A DNA stretch of 63,862 bases. Origin: Myxococcota bacterium (GTDB lineage Bacteria; Myxococcota_A; Polyangia; HGW-17). Both the position numbers and the translations under genes were made by a program. Every line of letters starts with the position of its first letter. Positions within the stretch are counted from its first letter, which is position 1. The notes below the pieces were generated by a model, which did no database searches, was not told the origin of the DNA, and saw only the letters and a program-made list of their open reading frames with translations. This document shows positions 1 to 63,862 of the stretch, piece by piece. The stretch spans positions 1 through 63,862 of the forward strand of contig JAHJMN010000085.1 in the NCBI GenBank assembly GCA_018821305.1. The letters are read 5' to 3'.

Positions 1-140
1 AATACCAACTTTTCAAGTTAACGTCTATTTCTATCACAGGACATTAAGAATGAAGACCTTGAAATTATTGTAGTGTTCTGAATAGCATGTTTTCGTAAAC
101 ATGCTCAATTTTGACAAAAATTGAATTTCAGGACACGAAC
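1..140 (+). repeat. S-T composite repeat (partial S right arm plus complete T module), copy 1
   Basis: Positions 52-140 match 63775-63862 with 1 mismatch over 89 nt; hairpin agcatgttt-tcgt-aaacatgct at 84-105; positions 31-51 resemble the S right arm (cacaggacattaa vs caggacagtaa). Confidence 0.85.
84..105 (+). other. conserved 9-bp-stem hairpin of the T module (also at 6044-6065 and 63807-63828); weak terminator-like
   Basis: agcatgttt-tcgt-aaacatgct followed by caattttga; the copy at 6044 keeps pairing through c-to-t and g-to-a compensatory changes. Confidence 0.35.
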
Positions 141-182
141 TCCTTAGTAATACGATAGTGAATCATTTTAAAGAAATACTTC
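141..182 (+). repeat. M-element left-end fragment (solo end)
   Basis: ccttagtaatacgatagtgaatcattttaaagaaatacttc aligns to the left end of M-d (8310-8350) and M-a. Confidence 0.7.
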
Positions 183-254: not shown

Positions 255-1589
255 ATGAGGCTTTTACATACATCCGACTGGCATCTGGGACGGTCTTTAT
301 ATGATCGCAGACGATATGATGAATTTGAAGCATTCCTTAATTGGCTTCTATCCATAATTATAGAAGAAAACGTGGACACTTTGCTGGTAGCTGGGGATAT
401 CTTTGATACTCCGTCTCCGGCAAACCGGGCTCAGCAACTGTATTACAGATTTTTATCTCAAATCAACAAAACACAATGTGAACATGTGGTTATAACAGCC
501 GGAAATCATGACTCCCCATCTTTTCTGGATGCTCCGGGGGAACTGCTGAAGGCATTGGATGTTCATGTAGTGGGAAGCGCTTCACCGGGAAATCCATTCA
601 ATGAAATAAAGGTCCTTTTAAACAGTCCCTCCATGAGAGGGCCTGTCCCCGAGGGAGATTCACTGTTACATGAAATTGAATGCGGAAATATTATTGCATC
701 TGATGTGAAAGCTGTTGTTTGTGCGGTTCCTTACCTCCGAGACAGGGATATCCGAACAATGGAACCGGGGGAGACTATTGATGATAAAAACCGGAAAATG
801 GCTCTGGGATTACGAAATCATTACAAGGAAGTAATCCAGGCCGCAGAGACAATTTTAGCGGCACTTTACAAAACCGACCTTGATTCGACCCAGAAAAAGA
901 TACCTCTTATTGCCATGGGACATCTCTTTACGGAAAAAGGCCAGACAGTTCGCGGCGATGGAGTCCGGGACCTGTATGTCGGAGGCCTGGTTGGCGTTGA
1001 TGAAAGTGTATTCCCTGAGGTCATAGATTATCTGGCCCTCGGACATCTTCATATGCCCCAGACCGTCGGAGATGCAGCTCATATGCGCTACAGCGGCTCG
1101 CCGATTCCCATGGGGTTTGGTGAATCTAAACAACAGAAATCCGTAATAATTGTTGATTTTGAAAATGAAAACCCCAAACCTCAAGTCAGACTTCTGCCAG
1201 TACCATGTTTTCAGGAGCTAATTCAAATTCAGGGTGATCTTATTGAGATTCAGCAAAAGATACATGAATTGAAACGAGAAAAATCAAGAGCCTGGCTTGA
1301 GATCGAGTATACGGGAAACGAAATTGTTCCCAACTTGAGGCAGGACATTATTGATGAAGTTTCAGACTCTTTGATGGAAGTGAGACGTATTCAGAACCGC
1401 ATGGTAATTGAACGGGTTATGACAGCTTCATCTTCCGGTCAATCCCTTGATGACCTTGATGAGATTGACGTTTTTAACCGTTTGCTCGATGCAAGCGACT
1501 TTGATAATGATTCAAAAGATGATCTTATTGAAGCATTTAATGAAGTCCTGAAAAATCTCTCTGAGGAAGATAATCATGAAGATACTTGA
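255..1589 (+). CDS. sbcD: DNA repair exonuclease SbcD (Mre11-like calcineurin-fold nuclease)
   Basis: N-terminal HTSDWHLG, later VAGDIFD, GNHD and GHLH phosphoesterase motifs; RBS ggagg precedes the ATG; 14-bp overlap with downstream sbcC. Confidence 0.9.
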   Translation: MRLLHTSDWHLGRSLYDRRRYDEFEAFLNWLLSIIIEENVDTLLVAGDIFDTPSPANRAQQLYYRFLSQINKTQCEHVVITAGNHDSPSFLDAPGELLKALDVHVVGSASPGNPFNEIKVLLNSPSMRGPVPEGDSLLHEIECGNIIASDVKAVVCAVPYLRDRDIRTMEPGETIDDKNRKMALGLRNHYKEVIQAAETILAALYKTDLDSTQKKIPLIAMGHLFTEKGQTVRGDGVRDLYVGGLVGVDESVFPEVIDYLALGHLHMPQTVGDAAHMRYSGSPIPMGFGESKQQKSVIIVDFENENPKPQVRLLPVPCFQELIQIQGDLIEIQQKIHELKREKSRAWLEIEYTGNEIVPNLRQDIIDEVSDSLMEVRRIQNRMVIERVMTASSSGQSLDDLDEIDVFNRLLDASDFDNDSKDDLIEAFNEVLKNLSEEDNHEDT

Positions 1590-4500
1590 ACTTCGTTTTA
1601 AGAACCTTAATTCACTTTATGGCGAGTGGATTATAGATTTTACGGATCCGGCTTATGCAGCGGAAGGAATTTTTACACTTACGGGGCCCACAGGAGCCGG
1701 GAAATCGACGATACTGGACGCCATCTGTCTTGCTTTGTACGGGGCTACGCCTCGACTTAAGAAAATAACTAAGAGTGAAAATGAGATAATGTCTCGACTT
1801 ACGGGGGAATGCTATTCCGAGGTGTTATTTGAAACCCGGGAGGGAAGATTCCGATGTCACTGGGTACAGCGCCGAGCCCGCAAACATCATTCTGGTAACC
1901 TTCAGGATTATGAGCATCAGATTGTCGAAGATGAAACTCAAACAATAATAACGGCTAAAAAGAGCGAGGTTCCTTCCGTTGTGGAAGAAAAAACTGGTAT
2001 GGACTTTACTCGCTTTACGCGGGCCATTTTGCTTGCTCAGGGAAGTTTTGATTCATTTTTGAAAGCAGATGATGAAGGGAAGTCCCTGATTCTGGAACAG
2101 ATTACAGGAACTGATATTTACTCAAAAATTTCAATTGCAGTTTATGAACGTAACAAAAAAGAAAGTGAGAAACTGGATTCACTCAGAGGTGAATTAGCTG
2201 GAATCAATGTCCTTGACATCATACAGGAACAGACACTGCGTCAGGATCTCGAAGCAAAACTGGCAGAGGAAACGGGACTTTCTTCAACTTTGAAAAAATG
2301 CACTGAGGCTCTTTCCTGGCTTTCAGGTATGGATTCTTTAACTAAAGAAATTGTTGAAATAGATGCTCTGAAAGCAAAAAAACTGCAGGAAATCGAAGCT
2401 TTCGCCCCACAACGACTGAAACTCGAAAATGCCCGGAGAGCTGCAAATATTGAGGCAGTATATTCTCCAGTCACCGTAAGAAGAAAACAGCTGGCCGAAG
2501 ATGAGGTTAAGCTGGGAATTCAGGAAAAAGCCCTCCCTTTACTTGTTAAATCTGCCGATGATCTGTCTGCTGCTCTCCTGACGGCGGAAAAATACACTAC
2601 TCAGACCAGAGATAATATAACCATCGAAGCTCCGATCTGGAGTAAAATCAAGCTTCTGGATCAACAGATAGTACAAATGTCAACTGTAGTTACAGAACTT
2701 ACCCAGAGCTGTCTGAAAGAAACCAGTGCAATTGAAGAAAAGCAAAAGGAGCGCTCTTCAGAAGTGAAAAAGCGCGATAATGAGGTTATTAAACTTGAGA
2801 AGGCAACTGCATACATTGCAAAGCACGCTTCGGATGAAATGCTTATTTCCGAACTTGGAGCGATTTCAGAGCAATGCCGCAATATCATTGATTTGCAAAC
2901 TGAAATTTCCGCGAAAGCTTCTGAAATTTTAAAAACTGAAAAGGCAGTGTCTGACGGGACGAGGAAACTTGAAACTATCCTGGGGCAGCGCAAACTCAGG
3001 GAAAAAGAAATCGAAGAAACCATTAATAAAAAGCAAATTATTAAGGATGAACTGAAAAAACTCCTCGGGGAAAAGCTCCTCCGTGAATATCGCGCAGAGA
3101 AAGATTCTCTCCAAAAAGAGTTTACACTGCGCATGACCATTGCTTCACTGGAAGAACACCGTTCAAAGCTGGAAGACGGCATTGCGTGTCCCCTGTGCGG
3201 ATCTTTGGAACATCCCTTTGCCAGCGGAAACGTGCCCGAGTCTGATGATGTAAAAAATCGAATCGAGAAACTCCAGGATTTAATCCGGCAATCTGAAGAA
3301 CTCGAAGAAGTCATCCGACTTACGGAAATCACGGAAACTGAAAATCGCAATTTACTTTCAACTGTGATGAAACTGGAAACAGAGGTTGAAATTGATAAAA
3401 AATCAGCACTGCAGACCCTTGAGAATCTGAAAAACGATTTGGAAAAACTGAATGCCAGAGAAGAAATGCTTTTATCTGAGCTTTCTACGAAACTTGGGCC
3501 CCTTGGTATTACGGAGTTTAAAGTACAGACACTTCCATCTATCCTCAAAGAACGAAAAACTGCATATGAAAATCAGATAACCCTTAAAAACGACTGTCAA
3601 AAACAAATTGATTATATTTCCGGGGAAATCAAACGATTTGAAGCTGTTATCGAGAACCTTGAGAGTACCAGAATCGAAAAAAATGAGCACCTCAGACTTC
3701 GTAAAGAAGAACACATCAAACTTGAAACTGAACGAAAACGGTTGTACGGCGATAAAAATCCCGTTGAAGAGGAAGCTCGTTTTAATAAACTACTTGAACA
3801 GGCCATGGAAACGGAAAAAAAGAGCAGAAATCAGCTGGATTTGAAAAAACAGGAACTGACGGGAGCGAAAACCCAGATTGATAGTTTAAAAGGGAGTATT
3901 TCAGGAGGTACAGAAGAACTGAAAAAGTGCGAGGTTGAGTTTGCTGAAGCATTAAAAGCTGCCGGATTTCATGATGAAAGTGAATTCCTGGGGGCAATGC
4001 TTCCATCAATTGAGCGAACTGAACTGGTGAAAAAGGATGATGCTCTGAAATCTGTTTTATTTGAACTCAATACGAAAATGGAGGACCGTAAAACGAGGCT
4101 CGATGTTGAAAAAGAGCGAAAACTTACGGAAAAGAATGCATCAGAACTCAGGACACTCATGGAAACGCTGGAGAAAGATCTTACTTCTTTACGCAATGAT
4201 ATTACGGAATTAAAATTCAAACTTCGGGGAAATGAAGAAGCAAAAAGCAAGATGAGTTCCAGTATTGCCGCTTTAAAAGCTCAGGAAAATGAGGCTGCCA
4301 GATGGAACAAACTGAATACACTTATAGGGTCTAGTAATGGTAAAAAGTTCCGGCATTTCGCCCAGGGATTGACATTTGAAATTCTTGCAGGTCATGCAAA
4401 TGAACAACTTAAAAATATGACGGATCGGTACCTTTTGATTCGTGATGAAAACAAGCCACTTGAGCTTAATGTTATTGATAATTATCAGGCTGGAGAAAGA

Positions 4501-4833
4501 AGATCCATTAAGAATCTCTCCGGAGGGGAGAGTTTTATTGTCAGTCTGGCACTTGCTCTGGGGCTTTCACAGATGTCCAGTGGTAAAATACTTGTGGAGT
4601 CACTCTTTCTTGATGAAGGATTTGGTACCCTCGACGATGAAGCACTTGAAAGCGCGCTGGAGACTCTCTCTACTCTTCAGCAGTCTGGCAAACTCATCGG
4701 TATCATCTCACATTTGTCAGTTTTGAAAGAAAGGATTTCAACGACAATTATGATAAAACCCATCACAGATGGCCGCAGCACAATATCAGGCCCCGGCTGC
4801 CGAAACATTGATCTTGGCAGTGTCAGCTCCTGA
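1576..4833 (+). CDS. sbcC: DNA repair ATPase SbcC (Rad50-like SMC)
   Basis: Walker A GPTGAGKST at N-terminus, long coiled coil, zinc-hook CPLCG in the middle, LSGGE signature and Walker B LFLDEGFGTLD at C-terminus; 1085 aa. Confidence 0.9.
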   Translation: MKILELRFKNLNSLYGEWIIDFTDPAYAAEGIFTLTGPTGAGKSTILDAICLALYGATPRLKKITKSENEIMSRLTGECYSEVLFETREGRFRCHWVQRRARKHHSGNLQDYEHQIVEDETQTIITAKKSEVPSVVEEKTGMDFTRFTRAILLAQGSFDSFLKADDEGKSLILEQITGTDIYSKISIAVYERNKKESEKLDSLRGELAGINVLDIIQEQTLRQDLEAKLAEETGLSSTLKKCTEALSWLSGMDSLTKEIVEIDALKAKKLQEIEAFAPQRLKLENARRAANIEAVYSPVTVRRKQLAEDEVKLGIQEKALPLLVKSADDLSAALLTAEKYTTQTRDNITIEAPIWSKIKLLDQQIVQMSTVVTELTQSCLKETSAIEEKQKERSSEVKKRDNEVIKLEKATAYIAKHASDEMLISELGAISEQCRNIIDLQTEISAKASEILKTEKAVSDGTRKLETILGQRKLREKEIEETINKKQIIKDELKKLLGEKLLREYRAEKDSLQKEFTLRMTIASLEEHRSKLEDGIACPLCGSLEHPFASGNVPESDDVKNRIEKLQDLIRQSEELEEVIRLTEITETENRNLLSTVMKLETEVEIDKKSALQTLENLKNDLEKLNAREEMLLSELSTKLGPLGITEFKVQTLPSILKERKTAYENQITLKNDCQKQIDYISGEIKRFEAVIENLESTRIEKNEHLRLRKEEHIKLETERKRLYGDKNPVEEEARFNKLLEQAMETEKKSRNQLDLKKQELTGAKTQIDSLKGSISGGTEELKKCEVEFAEALKAAGFHDESEFLGAMLPSIERTELVKKDDALKSVLFELNTKMEDRKTRLDVEKERKLTEKNASELRTLMETLEKDLTSLRNDITELKFKLRGNEEAKSKMSSSIAALKAQENEAARWNKLNTLIGSSNGKKFRHFAQGLTFEILAGHANEQLKNMTDRYLLIRDENKPLELNVIDNYQAGERRSIKNLSGGESFIVSLALALGLSQMSSGKILVESLFLDEGFGTLDDEALESALETLSTLQQSGKLIGIISHLSVLKERISTTIMIKPITDGRSTISGPGCRNIDLGSVSS

Positions 4834-4920
4834 TTGATATTGTGTCGCTTTTTTTATGTAGTTCATGTACTGTAATTCTCATCGCAAAGAAATTTATTAG
4901 AATTTCATTAGGGAGAAATT

Positions 4921-5949
4921 ATGGCAGTAAATAATAAAATTACATCATTGATTACATTGTCATTTCTTTGGTACTTGTCTGCCTGCTCCACTCCAAAGCG
5001 GCCAGAGGGCAATTCTCAAAAAAAAATAGTCATTGAAAAGGTTTTCGCAGAGCCGAAAGTAAAACAAGTTGAAAAGTTAAAACAAAAGCCATCAATTCAG
5101 CTTACGCAGACGCAACCAGTTCCTGAAATGAAATCACCTCTGGTTGTATTCAGTTACAAGTTGGGTTGCCAGGAGGCAGCAGCATATATATACCCCGTGA
5201 CATGTTATGATCCGGCAGTAGGACTATGGATTACCGGCCCAAGGTGCCTGCGTTCTTTTGTCGGGACACGTTACCATCTTTTGTCTGATGGAGATGAAAA
5301 AGAAATTAAAGCATCGGCTGCCCTTGATTACAAAATTCCTGGTGTATTTACCTTCCTGCCATACAACAGTGAGCTTTTCGCATTCACAATAATTAAGGAT
5401 ATGACACATATAAAACTGGAAGCGGACAAAAGTCCAAAACTGAGTTGGAGCGAGAAGAAATTTATCAACGCTTTTACACGTCGAACAGCACCTGCATTGG
5501 CAAGAGACAGCGTCGTAAAAAAACCAGTCTTCTGGAAAGAACCGGAAATTGACAATATAAAAATTTTTGAGAGAACCATTGCTGATATTGACGAAGATGG
5601 TAAAAAGGACAGTGTTTATGCTGTGGAAATAACTTTCTCAGGAACAATTTCTCTCACTGCGACCATGCTTGTGTTTGCTCCCAGTGGTGATTTAAAAAAG
5701 CTTTCCTTTTTATTGGACAGCAAGGGAGCTCTAAGCACGCCTCGCTTTGTAGTCAATATTGGCAAAAAGCGATTTGTCCTCTTTCAGGATGATTCATTTT
5801 TATCTGGAGCCCGGGATGGGATAAGACTCATGCTTTGGGAAAATGGACGCCTTACTCCCGCTTTTCATATCTGCTGCATTTACGACAAAAAAATACAGAA
5901 AAACACTCCTGTCATATGTCCGGAAAAGAAAACAAAATCAGTGAAATAG
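4921..5949 (+). CDS. hypothetical lipoprotein (LSAC lipobox)
   Basis: Signal peptide with LWYLSAC lipobox; no recognisable catalytic motifs; ORF of 342 aa with upstream gggag RBS. Confidence 0.6.
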   Translation: MAVNNKITSLITLSFLWYLSACSTPKRPEGNSQKKIVIEKVFAEPKVKQVEKLKQKPSIQLTQTQPVPEMKSPLVVFSYKLGCQEAAAYIYPVTCYDPAVGLWITGPRCLRSFVGTRYHLLSDGDEKEIKASAALDYKIPGVFTFLPYNSELFAFTIIKDMTHIKLEADKSPKLSWSEKKFINAFTRRTAPALARDSVVKKPVFWKEPEIDNIKIFERTIADIDEDGKKDSVYAVEITFSGTISLTATMLVFAPSGDLKKLSFLLDSKGALSTPRFVVNIGKKRFVLFQDDSFLSGARDGIRLMLWENGRLTPAFHICCIYDKKIQKNTPVICPEKKTKSVK

Positions 5950-6077
5950 TTATTGTCCTGTAATACGTTCGTTTCAAGTTTACAGCAATTTTTACACATG
6001 ACATAAAAAATGGAAACCTTGAAATTATTGCAGTGTTCTGAAAAGTATGTTTTCCTAAACATACTCATTTTTGCAAG
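5950..6077 (+). repeat. S-T composite repeat, degenerate copy 2
   Basis: ttattgtcctgtaatacg directly after a TAG stop; T module 6012-6077 shares about 85% identity with copy 1, with the hairpin retained through compensatory changes (agtatgttt / aaacatact). Confidence 0.8.
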
Positions 6078-6122
6078 ATAGTAGATCCTGAGGATTTCCG
6101 GAACAGTATTGTAATTGAATTT

Positions 6123-6190
6123 TACCGCTTCCTTAAATGGTTATGACCTGATCCTGCCCCTGTTTCCTGACTGCCTGTCTACCTGAGATA
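6123..6190 (-). repeat. M-element internal-deletion fragment (right-type end plus CCTG arm)
   Basis: taccgcttccttaaatgg then ttatgacctgatcctgcccctgtttcctgactgcctg resembles the reverse complement of the M right end and CAGG arm. Confidence 0.55.
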
Positions 6191-6241: not shown

Positions 6242-6294
6242 TAATGTCCTGTAATACAGTTTTTCAAATTTTTCGCCGATTTTTCGCTCAGGAC
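6242..6294 (+). repeat. S-like module (degenerate)
   Basis: taatgtcctgtaatacagtttttcaaatttttcgccgatttttcgctcaggact compared with 63712-63768. Confidence 0.6.
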
Positions 6295-6354
6295 TCTCAC
6301 TGTTTTCTGCGAAAACAGTTGTCGATTTTGACGATTTCATGCGGAAATACGAAC

Positions 6355-6566
6355 TAGACCGCTTGCGGAATAAAAGGATTGAAAAGTGAAAAGTGTAAGT
6401 TTTCATCAACCATTTGTAATTATGCTTTGATGTTGTAAGTTTATGACCTGATTCTGATCCTGTTTGCCTGACTACCTGAGTTTCTGTTTAAAATTTCAGG
6501 GAAACAGGAAATCAGTAGCAGGAGCAGGACAATCAGGGTCTCTTTCCTGAAGCATTTCTTTAATAA
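6355..6566 (-). mobile_element. M element, reverse orientation, lacking its left-type terminus (copy M-f)
   Basis: tagaccgcttgcggaataaaaggattgaaa (right-type end) ... cctg arm ... cagg arm ... tctttcctgaagcatttctttaataa; aligns with M-g along its length. Confidence 0.8.
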
Positions 6567-6723
6567 TAATAACCATATGGTTTTCATCCATAAATTTACC
6601 CAGAACTTTGTCCTTTATTGAAGTAATCTTTTTCTCAAGGAAATGGATGGTTAATCCGCATATGGCTACAGTTGCATAATATACTTTAGAGTGTTGCGGA
6701 AGTCAAGGGCGTTTATTATATTT

Positions 6724-6817
6724 AGTTCGTGTCCTGTAATTCGCTTCGCTAAGGATTTTATTAAAAATCCTAACTAGACCGCTTGCGGAGTAATACGATT
6801 GTGACTCGGTTTAAACA
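6724..6817 (+). repeat. composite: caggacacgaac module (reverse complement), 8-bp hairpin, then solo M left end
   Basis: agttcgtgtcctg; aggatttt-atta-aaaatcct hairpin; ctagaccgcttgcggagtaatacgattgtgactcggtttaaaca is identical to the M-a left end over about 40 nt; ends 35 bp before the 6851 start codon. Confidence 0.8.
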
Positions 6818-6850
6818 TATGTAGTTCAACGAAAAAACTGGAGGAATATT

Positions 6851-8236
6851 ATGATACTGGATGAGAACACGTTAACTTCATCTAAAATCGGACTATTTAT
6901 TGTTATCTTTTTTCTATCCGCCTGCGCCGGTAGTGGGAAAAAGACTTCAGGATCCGGAGCGCCTACAGACCTGTCGGTCACTCCTGACTCCACAACGGAG
7001 CTTTTTCTTACATGGAAAGACAATACCGATACCGAGACCGGTTTCGTTATTGAACGCAGCGTAGATGGTCTCCATTTTGCAAATATCCATGAGACATTAC
7101 CTGACGAGACATCATGGACTGACACCGGTCTTAACCACTCAACAATGTACTACTATCGGGTTCAAGCAAAATTTGGCGATGCATTTTCCGGGTATTCCAA
7201 CGTGGCCTCCACATCCACACTTTGTGATGGGAACACTTCCCTTCGCTGTGGAGATCTATGCGTTAATCCCAACTATGACAAACTCAACTGTGGAACGTGC
7301 GGTAATGACTGCGATGACGGTCAGGTCTGCATCGAGGGAAGTTGTACGGAATCTCCTTGCGATCCTCCATGTCAAAACGGCGGAACATGCAGCGGACTCA
7401 ACCAATGCGAGTGCCTGAATGGATGGTCTGGGGAAACCTGTGAGGAATCGCTTTGCGATCCACCTTGCCAAAACGGTGGAACTTGTATCGGCGTAAATCA
7501 GTGCGAGTGCCTGAGCGGATGGTCAGGAGTAACCTGTGAGGAATCGCTATGCGATCCACCTTGCCAAAACGGTGGAACCTGCAGTGGCCCTGATCAGTGT
7601 TCATGTCCAGCTGGATGGTCGGGAGACATCTGTAATGTACCAAACTGCAATCCATCCTGCCAGAATGGTGGAACCTGCATAGCTCCGAATCAGTGTACAT
7701 GTCCTAATGGGTGGACAGGACAAACTTGTGAAACAGTAACTGATGCAATTCCCATCGACAAAATAGATATGGCTGCTCGGGGTGTTGGTAGTGAGCAGGT
7801 TTTAACCTGGCCACAAACAGCTCAATTGAACAGTATGAATATCCACTGGGGCAGTTGGTACGGAGCACCAACATGGTATGTCGATATTGACGCTGTGGGT
7901 CACCTTTCCTGGACTGAATATCGACCTTATGGAGGCCCTAACGATGTGTTGATTACCGGGAACATTTGGATCCTCGTTCCCCAGTCCGGTTCAGATCGTT
8001 GGTGGGCCGCTCCTTTCGAGGGACTGGTTAAATTTACTACCATTCATTGCGCGGGGAATCTTAATTTTGAACGTACCAACATCCTCGAAAACTCGCCTCT
8101 GGCTTCCCCCTGGCAGCCACAAGCAGGTGTGACTTACGGATGGATGATATCCACTAATGTATCCACATTCTTTCCTAGCTCTAACGATGATCAGCGCAGT
8201 AACATTATCCTCGAGACATGGCCTCCGAATCCATAA
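6851..8236 (+). CDS. secreted lipoprotein with fibronectin-III domain followed by five tandem EGF-like repeats
   Basis: Lipobox FFLSAC; FN3-like segment (LTWKDNT...YYYRVQA); five repeats of CDPPCQNGGTCxGxNQCxCxxGWSGxTCEES with classic EGF cysteine spacing; ggagg RBS at 6839. Confidence 0.65.
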   Translation: MILDENTLTSSKIGLFIVIFFLSACAGSGKKTSGSGAPTDLSVTPDSTTELFLTWKDNTDTETGFVIERSVDGLHFANIHETLPDETSWTDTGLNHSTMYYYRVQAKFGDAFSGYSNVASTSTLCDGNTSLRCGDLCVNPNYDKLNCGTCGNDCDDGQVCIEGSCTESPCDPPCQNGGTCSGLNQCECLNGWSGETCEESLCDPPCQNGGTCIGVNQCECLSGWSGVTCEESLCDPPCQNGGTCSGPDQCSCPAGWSGDICNVPNCNPSCQNGGTCIAPNQCTCPNGWTGQTCETVTDAIPIDKIDMAARGVGSEQVLTWPQTAQLNSMNIHWGSWYGAPTWYVDIDAVGHLSWTEYRPYGGPNDVLITGNIWILVPQSGSDRWWAAPFEGLVKFTTIHCAGNLNFERTNILENSPLASPWQPQAGVTYGWMISTNVSTFFPSSNDDQRSNIILETWPPNP

Positions 8237-8298: not shown

Positions 8299-8576
8299 CT
8301 AAACCGCTTCTTGAGTAATACGATAGTAACTTAATTTAAAGAAATACTTCAGGAAAACGACGCTCAATAGCATTCCCCTGCGCGAAATTGCCTACCTGAT
8401 TGTCCTGATTCTGCTACTGGTTGCCTGTGTACCTGAAATTTTTACAGGTAAGTAGGTAAGCAGGAAACAGGAGCAGCAGCAGGTCGTAAACATTCAGCAT
8501 AAAGGCATAATTACAAAAGAAGACAATAATCCACTCAGTTTGAGATTTCGATCTTTTTACTCAAGAAGCGGTTTAG
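8299..8576 (+). mobile_element. M element, complete copy M-d (MITE, IS630/Tc1-like: TA-flanked, 21-bp perfect TIRs)
   Basis: TA at 8299-8300 and at 8574-8575; left aaccgcttcttgagtaa is the exact reverse complement of right ttactcaagaagcggtt; central cctg-arm / cagg-arm hairpin 8389-8487; conserved core cattcccctgcgcgaaattgcctacctg. Confidence 0.9.
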
Positions 8577-9667: not shown

Positions 9668-9714
9668 GCAAAACCGCTTTCGTCCATATGATATTTCCCG
9701 GGAAATACTGCAAA

Positions 9715-10697: not shown

Positions 10698-10901
10698 GAG
10701 TTCGTGTCCTATTGCATTCCGCTGCGTGAAATTGCCTGCCTGAATTCCCTTTTACTGCTACTGCTTACCTGATTTTTTTAACAGACAATCAGGAATTCAG
10801 AAAATCAGGTTCAGGATCTGTGTAACCATTCAGAATTAAAACGAACGTAATTTTTAATTCAATTTCCCGGTTTCGATCCTTTTATTCCGCAAGCGGTCTA
10901 G
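10698..10901 (+). mobile_element. M element copy M-b, left end replaced by caggacacgaac module (reverse complement)
   Basis: gagttcgtgtcct then conserved core attgcattccgctgcgtgaaattgcctgcctg, hairpin arms, right end tttcgatccttttattccgcaagcggtc followed by TA (10899-10900). Confidence 0.85.
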
Positions 10902-16589: not shown

Positions 16590-18077
16590 ATGAAAAAACT
16601 TACAATCTCTATAATTTTAGGTCTTGCGATGATTGCAGCTCCGGGTTGCGACGATGATTCTTCAAATCCGGCTCAGGAGATCTGTGATAACGGTAAGGAC
16701 GATGATGGCGATGGATTTATTGACTGTCTTGACCAGAACTGCTTTGGTGATCCCGCCTGCAACAGCACTCAGGAAATCTGCGACAACGATCAGGATGATG
16801 ATGGTGACGGATTTGTGGATTGCGATGATGCCGATTGCGTAAACGAATGCGAATACACAGAAATCTGCAACAATGAAATCGACGACGATGACGATGGTTA
16901 TGTAGACTGCGATGATCAGGATTGCTCCGGCAGCCAATTCTGCAATGCAACAGAGGAAATCTGCAACAATAACCTTGATGATGATCTCGATGGTGCCATT
17001 GACTGCGATGACTCCGATTGTTCCGAACATCCATCCTGCATCACAAATGATGAAATCTGTGACAATGGCGTTGATGACGATGGGGACGGGTTTGTGGATT
17101 GCAATGACGCCGATTGCGAAGACGAATGCGAATTAACAGAAGTCTGCAACAATGAGCAGGACGATGATGAAGACGGTTTTGTAGATTGTGAAGATCAGGA
17201 TTGCTGGAATCACCAGTACTGCAACCTTCCTGTGGAAAACTGCACAAACGGCATTGACGACGATATGGACGGCGATGTTGACTGTGAAGACGGCGACTGT
17301 CGTGAACACCCTGACTGCTGGATCACTCAGGAAGATTGTGAAAACGGCATTGACGATGACAACGACGGCTTCGTTGACTGCAACGATTCCGACTGTGCGG
17401 ATCAGTGTGTCTTCCTTGAAAATTGTAATAATCAGATTGATGATGATGGCGATGGATATGTTGACTGTGAAGATCAGGATTGCTGGAACAATCAGGTTTG
17501 TCAGGCTCAGACGGAAATCTGCTATAACGGCCTTGATGATGACGGTGATGGCGACATCGATTGCGATGACTGGGACTGCTATAATTCACCCTATTGCCCG
17601 GGCTCTGAAGAAATCTGCAATAACATGTGGGATGATGATGGCGATGGCGACATCGATTGCGCCGATGCAGACTGCGCAATGGATCCATGGTGTCAGACTC
17701 CTAGAGAACAGGATTGCTCAAACTGGCAGGACGATGATGGCGACGGATATCGTGATTGCCGTGATTCCGACTGCATAGGAGATGCAGCATGCGGTGAATG
17801 TAACGCAGTGGATGGCTCCGGATGCGGAAATGGGACTTATTGCTACTTTGATCGTCAGGATAATTATCAGGGCAACTGCACAACGGAGCATGGTACAGGA
17901 AGTGTTGGAGATCCCTGCCAGACGGAAACGGAATGTTCCGTAGGTCTTTTCTGCAATCAACAAACAGATGTTTGTGACGAACTTTGCCTCCTTGGCACTG
18001 TATGTTCATCCTCAGGCGGCACTGCAACCATGTGTACTGAAGCATGGAACGGAAGCCCCTACGGCTACTGTCCGTAA
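16590..18077 (+). CDS. secreted lipoprotein made of ~11 Cys/Asp-rich putative metal/Ca-binding repeats (ICDNGxDDDGDGFVDCxDxDC)
   Basis: RBS aggagga then ATG at 16590; lipobox LAMIAAPGC; tandem ~37-aa repeats with higher-order ~330-nt nucleotide periodicity; the ORF-track start at 16500 is upstream of the RBS and judged too early. Confidence 0.7.
   Translation: MKKLTISIILGLAMIAAPGCDDDSSNPAQEICDNGKDDDGDGFIDCLDQNCFGDPACNSTQEICDNDQDDDGDGFVDCDDADCVNECEYTEICNNEIDDDDDGYVDCDDQDCSGSQFCNATEEICNNNLDDDLDGAIDCDDSDCSEHPSCITNDEICDNGVDDDGDGFVDCNDADCEDECELTEVCNNEQDDDEDGFVDCEDQDCWNHQYCNLPVENCTNGIDDDMDGDVDCEDGDCREHPDCWITQEDCENGIDDDNDGFVDCNDSDCADQCVFLENCNNQIDDDGDGYVDCEDQDCWNNQVCQAQTEICYNGLDDDGDGDIDCDDWDCYNSPYCPGSEEICNNMWDDDGDGDIDCADADCAMDPWCQTPREQDCSNWQDDDGDGYRDCRDSDCIGDAACGECNAVDGSGCGNGTYCYFDRQDNYQGNCTTEHGTGSVGDPCQTETECSVGLFCNQQTDVCDELCLLGTVCSSSGGTATMCTEAWNGSPYGYCP
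16650..17700 (+). repeat. intragenic tandem DNA repeats (about 111 nt units in about 330-nt higher-order blocks) encoding the Cys/Asp-rich repeats
   Basis: Recurring gaaatctgcgacaa ... gatgatgatggcgatgg ... gattgcgatgat strings at about 111-nt spacing across 16650-17700. Confidence 0.7.
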
Positions 18078-19159: not shown

Positions 19160-19310
19160 CCCTGTTTTCAATCCTGATCCCTGCCCCTGTTTTGCTGATT
19201 CCCTCGCTACCTGATTTCCTGAATGTTCTTGATTTTATCAATGCTTATTCTTTTTTTTAACAATAACAGTTAATACGCCTTAACCAAATAGCATTGGGTA
19301 TAGAAACCTT
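19160..19310 (-). repeat. partial M-k-like unit (CCTG arm) fused to a Q-like module
   Basis: ccctgttttcaatcctgatccctgcccctgttttgctgattccctcgctacctgatttcctgaat then ttaatacgccttaaccaaatagcattggg; compare 60390-60528. Confidence 0.6.
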
Positions 19311-21165: not shown

Positions 21166-21447
21166 CGTTACCGTTTTCGGAGTAATACTATAGTGAACAA
21201 TTTTCAGTAAATGCTACAGGAATGAGCCCCTCTAAAGCATTCCGCTGCGCGTTATTGCCTACCTGATTACCTTGTTCATGCTAATGATTTCCTGTTTGCC
21301 TGATTTTTTTTAACAGGAACTCAGGCAGTCAGGCAAACAGGCTCAGGATCAGGTCATAAACATTCAATATCAATGTAAAATTAAAAAGACTGAAAGAAAA
21401 TACTCACTGTTCTATTCTCGATCCTTTTACTCGAAAGCAGTCTAATC
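21166..21447 (+). mobile_element. M element, complete divergent copy M-c
   Basis: TA-ccgttttcggagtaatactatagtgaac ... conserved core aaagcattccgctgcgcgttattgcctacctg ... hairpin ... ctcgatccttttactcgaaagcagtc-TA. Confidence 0.85.
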
Positions 21448-28657: not shown

Positions 28658-28712
28658 TTACTGTCCGAAATACTGGTTTCGACTTTTTAGACTGAATTTT
28701 AATTCAGGACAG
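28658..28712 (+). repeat. S-like hairpin module between the glycosyltransferase-like gene and hslV
   Basis: ttactgtcc (28658-28666) ... caggacag (28705-28712), 9 nt after the TAA stop. Confidence 0.55.
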
Positions 28713-31395: not shown

Positions 31396-31450
31396 TAGTT
31401 ACTGTCCTGAAATTCAATTTTTCAAAGGGTTCTTTGCCTGAAGTTTTTCT
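31396..31450 (+). repeat. S-prime module (tagttactgtcctga ... ttcaaagggttctttgcctgaagtttttct), truncated by the M-g insertion
   Basis: Matches 31719-31795 (about 80% identity); begins 2 nt after the panD TAA stop. Confidence 0.7.
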
Positions 31451-31451
31451 T

Positions 31452-31697
31452 TTGACCGCTTCATGAGTAAAAGGATCGAAATCTAAAAAGTGAATATTGT
31501 CATCCTACCCTTTGTAATTATGCTTTGATTTTAAATGTTTATGACCTGAACCTGATCCTGATTGCCTGACTACCTGTGTCCCTTTTTAAAATTTCAGGGA
31601 AACAGGAACTCAGTAGCAGGAACAGGAAAACAGGGGGCTCATTCCTGAAGCATTTCTTTAAAACAAGTCACACTCGTATTACTCCGCAAGCGATCTA
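31452..31697 (-). mobile_element. M element, complete copy in reverse orientation (M-g)
   Basis: ttgaccgcttcatgagtaaaaggatcgaaat (reverse complement of right-type end) ... cctg/cagg hairpin ... cattcctgaagcatttctttaaaacaagtcacactcgtattactccgcaagcgatc-TA. Confidence 0.85.
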
Positions 31698-31718
31698 CTT
31701 ATATTTTCAACACCTTGC

Positions 31719-31836
31719 GGTTACTGTCCTGAGCAATAATTGGGCGAAAAATTTGATTTTCGGTATTTCAAAGGGGTCTTTGCCTGAAGTTTTTCTCTAA
31801 AATTCAACACAATCGTATTACTTCACAAGCGGTCAA
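31719..31836 (+). repeat. second S-prime module plus a left-type M terminus in reverse orientation
   Basis: ggttactgtcctgagc ... ttcaaaggggtctttgcctgaagtttttctc then caatcgtattacttcacaagcggtc. Confidence 0.7.
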
Positions 31837-32814: not shown

Positions 32815-33482
32815 ACGGAGATAGCACCATTTCATCGAAAGGAAATCCCATTCCTCATGCTACGATGGAGCGTTTGCCCAGATATCTGATGCAACTCTAT
32901 CGCTTCCGGGTTATTGGTGATGCCAATGTATCATCTCAGGCTCTGGGTGAAAGCCTGGGACTCAAAGACACTCAAATCCGAAAGGATCTCTCGTACTTTG
33001 GTGTCTTTGGGAAAGCTCGTTATGGATACAATATTGACTTTCTCATCGATGCTCTGGAGAAAATTCTCGGACTGACTCGAGTTTATAATCTAGCCATCGT
33101 TGGAGCTGGAAACATCGGCCGAGCCCTGGCAACGTACCGAGGTTTCGAGAGTAGAGAATTTAGAGTAAAACTGATTTTCGACAATAATAAAGGTCTCATC
33201 GGTCAGGATATTGGAGGCATTGTTGTTCAGGACTTTCGACTGCTTGAAGAAAAGATAAAAGAAATTCCCGTCGATATAGCGATAATTGCGGTTCCTGAAA
33301 AAGCCGCTTATGAAGTAGCTGAAACCCTTGTAAAAGCAGGCATTAAAGCAATTTATAACTTTACACCTGCGGAACTTCACCACCACGAAGGTGTTTTCAT
33401 TGAGCATGCAAGTATATCCTTCGGGATTTACAAACTTGCTCACCACCTTTCCGGCCACTGGCCCCGGAAATCCCAGCGCTAG
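32811..33482 (+). CDS. rex: redox-sensing transcriptional repressor Rex
   Basis: N-terminal winged helix IPHATMERLPRYLMQL and Rossmann IVGAGNIGRALA NADH-binding motif. Confidence 0.85.
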   Translation: MNGDSTISSKGNPIPHATMERLPRYLMQLYRFRVIGDANVSSQALGESLGLKDTQIRKDLSYFGVFGKARYGYNIDFLIDALEKILGLTRVYNLAIVGAGNIGRALATYRGFESREFRVKLIFDNNKGLIGQDIGGIVVQDFRLLEEKIKEIPVDIAIIAVPEKAAYEVAETLVKAGIKAIYNFTPAELHHHEGVFIEHASISFGIYKLAHHLSGHWPRKSQR

Positions 33483-33561
33483 TCCGTTTCCTGAGAAAAA
33501 GGATCGAGATTAGAAGAGTGAATATTGGCTTCCCGCTTTTGTAATTTTACATTGATATTGG
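33483..33561 (-). repeat. M-element fragment (right-type end and first about 60 nt), truncated
   Basis: gtccgtttcctgagaaaaaggatcgagattagaagagtgaatattggc ... ttttgtaattttacattgatattg aligns with 31452-31530. Confidence 0.6.
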
Positions 33562-33565
33562 ATGC

Positions 33566-34012
33566 TTATGAAACTCTTATCTGCTGTCCAGGCATTCTCA
33601 TTACTGGACAACCATTTCTTCGTTTATCATTATTTTTCTCGCCCTTTGTATTTGGGCAGGCATCATCAGTATCTGGAATTCCGTCACCATCATTATCCAA
33701 ATCAGGACATCCATCTGAGTCATCAAACCCATCACGATCCTCGGGCTTATCTGGACAAGCGTCTCGAACATCGGGGATTCCATCTCCGTCAGTATCAACT
33801 TTCGATGCCGGATCCGGGATATTGGAATCTTTGGATGTATCGGTTTTATTACTGCTTCCTTTCCGATCTTCAGGAGTTACTATTGTGGATTCAGTTGACG
33901 CACTTCCACAACTGGAAACAGTCAGAACAAAGGACAAGCCCGCTATTATTGAAGACACTGATTTCCCTGATGGATATTTGACTTCATTTGTTTGGATCTT
34001 TTGCAGTTTCAT
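33566..34012 (-). CDS. small lipoprotein with thrombospondin type-3-like Ca-binding repeats
   Basis: Lipobox LTVSSCGS; repeats [16 protein letters not shown] / [17 protein letters not shown]. Confidence 0.6.
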
Positions 34013-35010: not shown

Positions 35011-35118
35011 ATTAGACCGCATTCGGAATAAAAGTATCGAAACCATATTATTGTGAGTGTAAAATTGAATGATATTTTAAAAATTCAATTCAATCGTATT
35101 ACTCTGAAAGCGGTCTGG
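35011..35118 (-). mobile_element. mini-M element (internal-deletion derivative, about 104 bp between the flanks)
   Basis: TA-gaccgcattcggaataaaagtatcgaaacc ... caatcgtattactctgaaagcggtc-TG; both termini present, central hairpin absent; internal 8-bp hairpin aattgaat / attcaatt. Confidence 0.8.
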
Positions 35119-60161: not shown

Positions 60162-60528
60162 ACTTAACCCCAACAGTATTGTGTCTAATGGCAATGCTGA
60201 TCGGTTAGCGAACTTCCGAGTGAATTAATTAATAAATACAATCTTGTATAATAATTTCAGGCAGGCAGGAATTCAGGAAAACAGGGATCAGGAACAGGGC
60301 GTTTACTTTGAAGGTGTGCGTTTTTGTGGCATAAAGACCGCTTTCGTAAGCGGTCAAGATCGATTTCAATTCAGTATTTGCATATACACCTTCAGGAACA
60401 AGACCCTGTATCCTGATTCTGCTCCTGTTTCTGACTCCCTGAATATTTTTACTATTACTTATTATTATTATTTTTGTTAACAATATCAACTAATACGCCT
60501 TAACCGATCAGCATTGTGTCTAATGGCA
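60162..60528. repeat. composite locus: Q module (A-B), inverted CAGG/CCTG hairpin unit M-k with palindromic core agaccgctttcgtaagcggtc, then Q module (B-prime-A)
   Basis: 60174-60207 cagtattgtgtctaatggcaatgctgatcggtta and 60490-60528 aatacgccttaaccgatcagcattgtgtctaatggca share attgtgtctaatggca directly and gctgatcggtta inverted; cagg arm 60258-60296; cctg arm 60392-60440. Confidence 0.7.
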
Positions 60529-61379: not shown

Positions 61380-61660
61380 TCTAGACCGCTTGCGGAGTAA
61401 TACGATTGTGACTCGTTTTAAAGAAATGCTTCAGGAAAGAGCCCCCTCTATGGCATTCCGCTGCGCGAAATTGCCTACCTGTTTTCCTGTTGCTGCTACT
61501 GCTTACCTGGTTACCTGAAATTTTAAACAGGTATACAGGAAGTCAGGAAAACAGGTTCAGGATCAGCGGTTAAACATTCAATATCAATAATAATTAAAAA
61601 GAATGTAATTTTTAATTCATTTTCCCAATTTCGATCCTTTTAATCCGCAAGCGGTCTAAT
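61380..61660 (+). mobile_element. M element, complete reference copy M-a (about 277 bp between TA flanks)
   Basis: TA-gaccgcttgcggagtaatacgattgtgactcg ... core gcattccgctgcgcgaaattgcctacctg ... cctg arm/loop aaattttaaa/cagg arm ... cgatccttttaatccgcaagcggtc-TA; followed at 61689-61702 by ttcaggacacgaac. Confidence 0.9.
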
Positions 61661-61733
61661 TTCCATTTTCGCATTCGCCATTTTAATTTTCAGGACACGA
61701 ACGAATTAAGTGGTGGACTGGATATCGGAAATT

Positions 61734-63149: not shown

Positions 63150-63172
63150 ACTATACAAAAACTGTTCATGAC

Positions 63173-63285
63173 TATACCGCTTCCTGAGTAATACGATTGT
63201 GACTCGTTTTAAAGAAATGCTTCAGGAAAGAGCCCCCTGTTTTCCTGTTGCTGCTACTGCTTACCTGGTTATCTGAAATTTTGAG
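63173..63285 (+). mobile_element. M element 5-prime portion (copy M-j), with a 32-bp internal deletion removing the conserved core, truncated within the hairpin
   Basis: Near-identical to M-a positions 61383-61447 and 61480-61521 (one mismatch, tt vs ta, at 63270-63271); breaks off after ctgaaatttt. Confidence 0.85.
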
Positions 63286-63709: not shown

Positions 63710-63862
63710 AATTACTGTCCTGTAATACAATAAATCAAATTTTTCGCCGATTTTTTGCTCAGGACAGTAACAACGAAGACCTTGAAATTATTGTAGTGTT
63801 CTGAATAGCATGTTTTCGTAAACATGCTCAATTTTGATAAAAATTGAATTTCAGGACACGAA
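63710..63862 (+). repeat. S-T composite repeat, copy 3 (complete S hairpin plus T module, running to the window edge)
   Basis: TA-ctgtcctg (63712-63722) ... caggacag-TA (63760-63770); T module 63775-63862 nearly identical to 52-140; hairpin 63807-63828. Confidence 0.85.

Follow-up and report, generated by a model that had tools for sequence, protein, structure and literature searches.

The 63,862-nucleotide stretch of DNA analysed here (the window; contig JAHJMN010000085.1, from a MAG labelled Myxococcota) carries a bacterial MITE family, which we call M. M has the terminal inverted repeats (TIRs), the small size and the copy number of such a family, and it has target duplication as well, with caveats that are given below where the empty site is described. 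It is a previously undescribed family of a well-known MITE kind. We consider it probable that the M elements, of about 273 bp, are non-coding deletion derivatives of a cut-and-paste transposon, and that they are mobilised in trans by a TA-duplicating enzyme of the IS630/Tc1-mariner type. We know of no TA-targeting MITE families from Myxococcota, and a literature search on MITEs and IS630 elements in Myxococcota found no such family. M challenges no current view. It brings to a lineage labelled Myxococcota one MITE family that targets TA, and a further such family that is nested with it. The least ordinary features of M are the mirrored variants at its ends and its periodic foldback, and its value would be higher if the partner transposase were unusual or if the mirrored ends reflected a new copying mechanism.

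Copies of M and of a second repeat family

An nhmmer profile was built from four complete M copies. It gave 15 M-related loci in the window, six of them near-full copies and the rest fragments (Table 1), and a repeat search and BLASTN gave concordant copies. The E-values of the larger copies, from 1e-89 to 1e-28, are far beyond chance, and the repeat family that a sequence-only reading of the window had proposed is real. The stretch 61380-61660 reads TA-GACCGC...GCGGTC-TA, all loci listed in that reading were recovered, and two were additional (31771-31836 and 19169-19214). Its description of a dispersed, non-coding, TIR-bounded and TA-flanked family with no transposase in the window was also upheld.

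All 15 loci are intergenic, and copies occur in both orientations relative to the neighbouring genes. The longest ORF within the M-a copy has 42 aa, and no M copy has a longer one. M-derived sequence makes up about 3 to 4% of the window, and further copies lie in the 2.25 kb past its end (locus L049, same species). The near-full copies span 242 to 274 bp between their flanks, and M elements as a whole 101 to 274 bp (273, 272, 274, 242 and 101 bp between the flanking dinucleotides). Inserts of 274 to 277 bp between the TAs had been claimed. We measured 273 bp for M-a, 272 bp for M-d and 274 bp for M-c; values of 276 to 277 bp are reached only in M-a and M-d, when both TAs are counted. Pairwise identity of the full copies is 74 to 87%. 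A 29-bp core had been ascribed to all copies, but among the seven that were aligned, three (31451-31698, 6354-6576 and 63172-63284) lack it and show a clean 34-nt gap.

Table 1. Positions of M and N repeats in the window and, where marked, in locus L049
Feature	Position	nhmmer position	Strand	Description
M-a	61382-61658	61381-61659	+	Complete; 273 bp (61384-61656) between TA flanks
M-a, left TIR	61384-61408
M-a, 29-bp core	61453-61481
M-a, right TIR	61632-61656
M-a hairpin, CCTG arm	61474-61517
M-a hairpin, loop	61518-61527
M-a hairpin, CAGG arm	61528-61566
M-d	8300-8575	8299-8576	+	Complete; 272 bp between TA flanks; both TIRs of the CTTG variant
M-c	21167-21444	21170-21445	+	Complete; 274 bp; degenerate TIRs; flanks GT (left) and TA (right)
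M copy	31452-31697	31451-31698	-	Complete; 242 bp; without the 29-bp core; flanks TA (left) and AA (right)
M copy	6355-6576	6354-6576	-	Without the left ~40 nt and without the core; right end abuts TA, then the "B part" of an N-family repeat (filled-right junction)
M copy	10708-10900	10708-10901	+	Left ~66 nt missing, with an N-family terminus (10700-10711) instead
M derivative	35013-35117	35012-35117	-	Internal-deletion derivative; 101 bp; both ends, no hairpin; flanks CA and TA
M, left half	63173-63284	63172-63284	+	Stops at the hairpin apex; without the core; left flank TA
M, right-end fragment	33480-33571		-	Same junction in locus L042 of a relative
M, left-end fragment	6775-6821	6774-6821	+	47 nt; TA plus the "A part" of an N-family repeat ahead of the M left end (filled-left junction)
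M, left-end fragment	31771-31836		-	Flank TT; fused to N-family sequence
M, left subterminal fragment	142-182		+	Directly joined to the N-family terminus CAGGACACGAAC at 129-140
M fragment	6119-6190		-	Starts from the hairpin apex: CAGG arm plus ~30 nt
M, hairpin-arm fragment	19169-19214		-	Isolated
M-related unit	60249-60450			Rearranged; CAGG arm first, CCTG arm last, around the palindrome GACCGCTTTCGTAAGCGGTC
N family, window	15-140, 4856-4902, 5949-6099, 6242-6354, 6723-6774, 10700-10711, 28658-28710, 31398-31450, 31720-31770, 61659-61702, 63713-63862
N family, L049	8480-8632, 10578-10795
N, 55-nt mini-unit	6243-6296, 63714-63768			TA-CTGTCCTGTAATAC...GCTCAGGACAG-TA

The second repeat family, N, is likewise TA-flanked, and its termini are TA-GTTCGTGTCCTG(T/A)AAT... 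and ...CAGGACACGAAC-TA. N is repeatedly nested with M or abuts it, and the motif GTAATAC is common to N and to the left end of M. Both families may be substrates of one transposase or of related ones.

Contigs end in M or N repeats at window positions 1 and 63862 and at the ends of loci L033, L034, L042, L045, L050 and L051. The start of contig JAHJQC010000097.1, which corresponds to window position 6473, also lies within M or N, and one contig end sits at the hairpin apex of M. Because assemblies break on these repeats, the genome-wide copy number is probably high. The repeats thus explain where assemblies of this uncultured lineage break.

Terminal repeats and insertion at TA

The ends of M form an imperfect TIR of about 27 nt, with 23 to 24 of the 27 positions matching between the two ends in M-a and M-d. 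Recognisable TIRs occur in six complete elements, one of which comes from another genus. Each end has two conserved blocks with a variable 4-nt block between them. Going inward from the TA, GACCGCTT comes first; the second block is AGTAATACGAT(T/A)G in left ends and AGTAAAAGGATCG in right ends. Ends of the M type can be written as TA-GACCGCTT...AAGCGGTC-TA. Perfect TIRs of 19 to 21 bp had been claimed for both elements; this holds for M-d (19 nt including the TA), but not for M-a (15 nt).

Left and right ends differ at TIR positions 20, 22 and 26, and these differences are identical in every copy, the other-genus element included. Therefore, these positions are conserved as sequence and not as base pairs. 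The constancy of the differences indicates recognition by sequence rather than pairing, as expected of a protein-binding site. IS630 and ISY100 insert at TA with duplication of the TA, and the ISY100 transposase binds the element ends via two HTH motifs (PMC2170065). End recognition of this two-HTH kind would fit the two end blocks of M, and the target and its duplication are alike in both. Unlike M, which is non-coding, these insertion sequences are autonomous, measure about 1 to 1.2 kb and encode a DDE transposase.

The variable block is mirrored within an element. GCGG stands at both ends of M-a and CTTG at both ends of M-d, as the sequence-only reading had noticed, and a third variant, CATG, stands at both ends of an element from a related genus (locus L040). 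The 31452-31697 copy is a hybrid of a GCGG left end and a CATG right end. A mirrored variable block is not predicted by the simple MITE model. Subfamily-specific transposases or conversion between paired ends are possible sources of it.

The 21 independent termini compared, from the window and from related loci, include 17 with an adjacent TA (P about 1e-18). The base outside the TA is C at 10 of these 17 termini (P = 8e-4) and a pyrimidine at 15 of them (P = 9e-4). Both sides read together give a palindromic YTAR target, most often CTAG. A direct repeat is possible for the TA only, and the 4-mers at the two ends of an element are reverse complements (in M-d, left CTAA and right TTAG).

A paralogous empty site is provided by an N-family copy of the same species (L049:10674-10800), which has a single TA and no M. 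It reads ...atcctaac-TA-caacgtatttcc..., and is also given as ...aaaaatcctaac-TA-caacgtatttccgaaggaaatcg.... In the window, 6724-6776 contains the left part as in the empty site (95% identical), followed by TA and the left end of M. On the reverse strand, 6357-6294 runs from the right end of M through TA into gttcgtatttccgcatgaaatcg..., which is the right part of the empty site (91% identical). The TA is single in the uninterrupted paralogue, yet it stands beside each M end. Therefore, this comparison, with n = 1, a paralogue rather than an allele, and 3 nt beside the TA that differ (caa versus gtt), supports TA duplication. If gtt is used, the reconstructed target is AAC-TA-GTT, i.e., CTAG. 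The two filled junctions are about 420 bp apart in an inverted arrangement, which would reflect either one insertion followed by an inversion or separate insertions into the same TA of two N copies. The paralogous empty site, the bias toward C and pyrimidine, and the differing occupancy in related genomes point to insertion of M with TA duplication.

Three genes borrow their stop codon from an M terminus. The dinB stop TAA (8573-8575, minus strand) consists of TA plus the first base of the M-d right end. The rex stop TAG (33480-33482) is TA plus the first base of the 33480-33571 fragment, and the TAG of a glgC-like gene (10898-10900, minus strand) is TA plus the first base of the right end of the 10708 copy. 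DinB and Rex are of normal length, each ending within one residue of the ends of its homologues. Both M termini begin with G or A, and an M copy that enters a TAA or TAG stop at its TA therefore rebuilds the stop in either orientation. This would explain the three genes that end in M, and it gives a simple reason why such sites are tolerated, as the insertion does no harm there.

The target and the two-block ends point to a DDE transposase of the IS630/Tc1-mariner type. The title of Tenzen & Ohtsubo 1991, as it appears in the reference list of PMC2170065, has IS630 prefer TA within CTAG. The IS630/Tc1 assignment had been made from the letters of the window. TA duplication and the CTAG bias now speak for it, no IS with matching ends was found in our scans, and it rests on the target and the bipartite look of the TIRs.

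It is unlikely, in our judgement, that M is a MITE moved by a transposase outside this superfamily, either of the IS5-family/PIF-Harbinger type or of an undescribed family. Some IS5/PIF-Harbinger-type subgroups make 2-4-bp TA-containing duplications at YTAR-like targets. YTAR is the IS5 target consensus (ISfinder family table), and many IS5-family ends start with GA, as M does. Both points count for such an enzyme. So do the inferred target itself, YTAR with C only slightly ahead of T, and the lack of an IS630-type partner among the scans made. However, only the central TA of the target reads as a direct repeat, the 4-mers at the ends being reverse complements, and IS630/Tc1 elements are the textbook case of a 2-bp TA duplication.

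The window itself gave no candidate for the enzyme: no transposase, recombinase or RAYT was found among the 50 of its ORFs that were scanned with Pfam, or among 10 of the unassigned ones with NCBIfam. A 342-aa ORF beside a repeat cluster (4921-5949) was considered as a hidden transposase and rejected; its product has a lipoprotein-like signal sequence and no family match. A genome collection was scanned with a pattern of 16 specified bases, and the matches listed, at least 32, were all chance matches, none with M, a result from which absence does not follow. Metagenomes gave no match to the TIR pattern and only two chance matches to the right-end pattern, both in coding DNA of low-GC genomes. 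Scans of viral collections found no M element, a plasmid search with the whole element found one AT-rich chance match only, and a literature search on the M terminal sequences found nothing relevant.

We suggest the following route for an enzyme of the IS630/Tc1-mariner type. Most probably, a transposase encoded elsewhere in the genome would bind the two conserved blocks of each M end, i.e., GACCGCTT together with AGTAATACGAT at the left end or with AGTAAAAGGATCG at the right end, and with the variable 4-nt block between them. It would then excise M and reinsert it at a TA, which would become duplicated. The preferred context of insertion would be pyrimidine-TA-purine, most often CTAG.

RUP of S. 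pneumoniae is a precedent for an IS630-mobilised bacterial MITE (PMC2229807). Like M, it is non-coding, intergenic, multi-copy, TIR-bounded and inserted at TA, and its mobilisation is attributed to an IS630-family transposase acting in trans (IS630-Spn1; PMC2229807), as we propose for M. Compared by description, the two differ in that RUP has 107 bp and TIRs that match a known IS, whereas M has about 273 bp, a long internal foldback of CCTG/CAGG at 8-nt spacing and no partner IS found. The Correia/NEMIS elements of Neisseria resemble M in their terminal TA with duplication, their TIRs of about 24 to 26 bp, and the long stem-loops of any transcript (PMC2229807). In both families the presence or absence of an internal segment distinguishes size variants; this is a 50-bp block in Correia and the 34-nt core block in M, and no cognate transposase is known for either family (PMC2229807). 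Correia elements are shorter, with 107 to 155 bp, and live in a different host phylum. They contain an IHF site and are documented as RNase III substrates and promoters. Their end sequence presumably differs from the M terminal sequence.

Eukaryote-type parallels were weighed by analogy. Stowaway MITEs are TA-flanked and mobilised by Tc1/mariner enzymes, and FB elements have inverted repeats of short tandem units, like the CCTG/CAGG arms of M. In FB elements these repeat-built arms are the termini, whereas in M the arms are internal and separate TIRs lie outside them; we draw the analogy only and claim no homology.

The central foldback

Most M copies have a central foldback of CCTG and CAGG at 8-nt spacing. 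The pattern CCTGN4CCTG occurs 24 times in the window, where 1.2 would be expected, and every occurrence lies in M-related DNA. Compared with shuffled sequence, M-a has a folding z of -7.6, whether it is treated as DNA or as RNA. For the central hairpin by itself, z is -3.2 to -5.3 in five copies and -1.0 in the 10708 copy, where it is decayed. The hairpin arms are paired in 87% of cells, and 11 of the 23 main-helix pairs are invariant. Another 8 of the 23 depart only through broken pairs. Double changes occur in two pairs, and 195 of 500 shuffles gave the same, which is no excess of covariation. The hairpin is inherited and decaying, without compensatory maintenance, and the CCTG/CAGG foldback looks like inherited cargo rather than a selected structure.

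Fragments at 63172-63284, 6119-6190, 19169-19214 and 60249-60310 end exactly at the hairpin apex, and the L040 element of the related genus lacks one hairpin arm. The apex-ended fragments and this arm loss suggest that the hairpin provokes deletion, and the foldback appears to promote truncation of M at its apex.

Could M be a multi-copy structured ncRNA gene or RNA regulatory module, with ends that pair around the central hairpin and a spread that is secondary? The strong fold of M-a would agree with this, and the mirroring of the outer 19 nt in M-a, M-d and the L040 element resembles compensatory change. Even so, we hold this reading to be highly improbable. Across the whole window, Rfam gave no match at the gathering threshold, and at a permissive threshold only hairpin-like miRNA models with E >= 0.2. 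No promoter or terminator was found that recurs at a fixed position in M. The copies lie in both orientations relative to their neighbour genes, and many are truncated or rearranged. Pairing is kept by conservation and not by covariation, it has decayed in the 10708 copy, and conserved left/right mismatches lie inside the supposed terminal stem.

We also considered that M is no passive IS630-type passenger and that its copying or processing takes place on a folded single strand, of DNA or RNA, with its ends pairing; M would then be mobilised by, or serve, an enzyme not yet linked to TA-flanked MITEs. The idea arises because the outer 19 nt are mirrored in three versions (GCGG, CTTG and CATG), with a fixed difference between left and right over the 8 nt that follow, and because the foldback has an 8-nt period. 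We think such copying decidedly unlikely. In a weaker variant of the idea, the CCTG array could offer binding sites to a protein of the host or of a transposon.

More specific readings of M were rejected. A CsrA-titrating RNA (sponge) fails because the base after CAGG is not conserved as A and the GGA motifs are not kept. A cassette with an intrinsic terminator or promoter was set aside, as no such sites recur in M, and an IHF site was rejected with no match to WATCAANNNNTTR by eye. A retron-like ncRNA, which would have inverted ends and a long hairpin, was rejected as well: no reverse transcriptase lies next to M, whose copies are dispersed and decayed.

Near the start of the window, sbcD and sbcC (255-4833) encode a DNA-hairpin-cleaving nuclease, in a genome that is rich in long foldback repeats, many of them truncated at the apex. 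This co-occurrence may be coincidence. After a CCTG arm, the segments 19211-19302 and 60431-60522 have in common a conserved stretch of about 90 nt (76% identity; ...TTAACAATAnCAnnTAATACGCCTTAACCnAnnAGCATTGnGTnTA), for which Rfam gave no match. A regulatory leader and the terminus of an M-related variant element are possible readings of this stretch.

Age of the family and neighbouring features

Two further MAGs of the species (GCA_018819425.1 and GCA_018820545.1) are 100% identical to the window over 12.1, 8.6 and 6.5 kb, and no insertion polymorphism was found among the three MAGs over the 27 kb compared. A more distant relative, 86 to 88% identical in coding DNA, was available in Logan run SRR32001354 (loci L033, L042 and L045). 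It has heavily diverged M-like ends at the dinB and rex stops, in the same positions as in the window, and also upstream of moxR. At least three M insertions are common to the window and this relative, where they have decayed. Beside the orthologous beta-helix gene, the relative has neither M-a nor the 63173 copy and carries N-type repeats or different DNA instead; these are not clean empty sites, as the alignment breaks at repeats. In a related genus (GCA_016937155.1, syntenic contig), the spacer downstream of PanD has 181 bp, versus 607 bp with M copies in the window. One short M-like element was found in 42 kb of that genus, versus 15 loci in the 64-kb window. These occupancy differences, in the relative and in the related genus, fall where synteny or alignment breaks.

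The family appears to be old, lineage-restricted and expanded in this species group, because its full copies are 74 to 87% identical, decayed insertions are shared, and the related genus has a single element. Most M copies in the window are old and decaying. Recent activity had been proposed from a single mismatch between 63175-63285 and M-a. The two match at 105 of 110 aligned bases, i.e., there are 5 differences, three of them within the TIR, plus the 34-nt gap. With the divergence of the full copies, the insertions shared with the 87% relative and the uniformity of the three MAGs, the claim of recent activity is weak. M-a and the 63173 copy lie 1.8 kb apart in direct orientation with a single gene between them, and local duplication or conversion explains this near-identical pair as well as recent transposition does.

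The age of several copies, which are common to relatives, and the three assemblies without polymorphism would also suit a non-mobile or host-domesticated repeat of the REP/BIME or CIR type, one that spread by recombination or duplication and has the TA as part of itself. The mosaic of M loci with N would suit it too. We find this reading very hard to credit. In the empty paralogue, the single TA and the C before it belong to the target and not to M, and unrelated flanks share the target-like bias. In addition, 273 bp with a 27-nt TIR is unlike the 20-40-nt REP palindromes, and no RAYT-like (Y1-transposase) gene lies within the window. Trans-mobilised MITEs that duplicate TA remain the reading that we prefer.

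The moxR-dinB spacer contains a decayed remnant of an M right end at 9668-9714 (..ACGAAAGCGGTTTT..). The 87% relative shares it (L033:1114-1216) and carries about 26 more bases in this spacer; the remnant there is an ancient fragment. DinB and the beta-helix protein are 70 to 73% identical to Bacteroidota proteins, though the MAG, with a GC content of 42%, is labelled Myxococcota. The loci of DinB homologues in Bacteroidota (L035-L039) have no M elements and no synteny with the window. Rex matches only MAGs labelled Myxococcota or "Deltaproteobacteria".

About 1.5 kb past the window end there is a tmRNA gene (L049:10169-10518, minus strand) with the tag AEDNSLALAA, flanked by nested M and N fragments. 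Two sets of tandem repeats in the window are coding. At 16677-17774, 12 units of 87 or 96 nt encode Asp/Cys-rich modules in an ORF without a Pfam family. At 7325-7708, the gene of a protein that has fn3 and EGF domains contains four units of 96 nt, which encode EGF-like modules.
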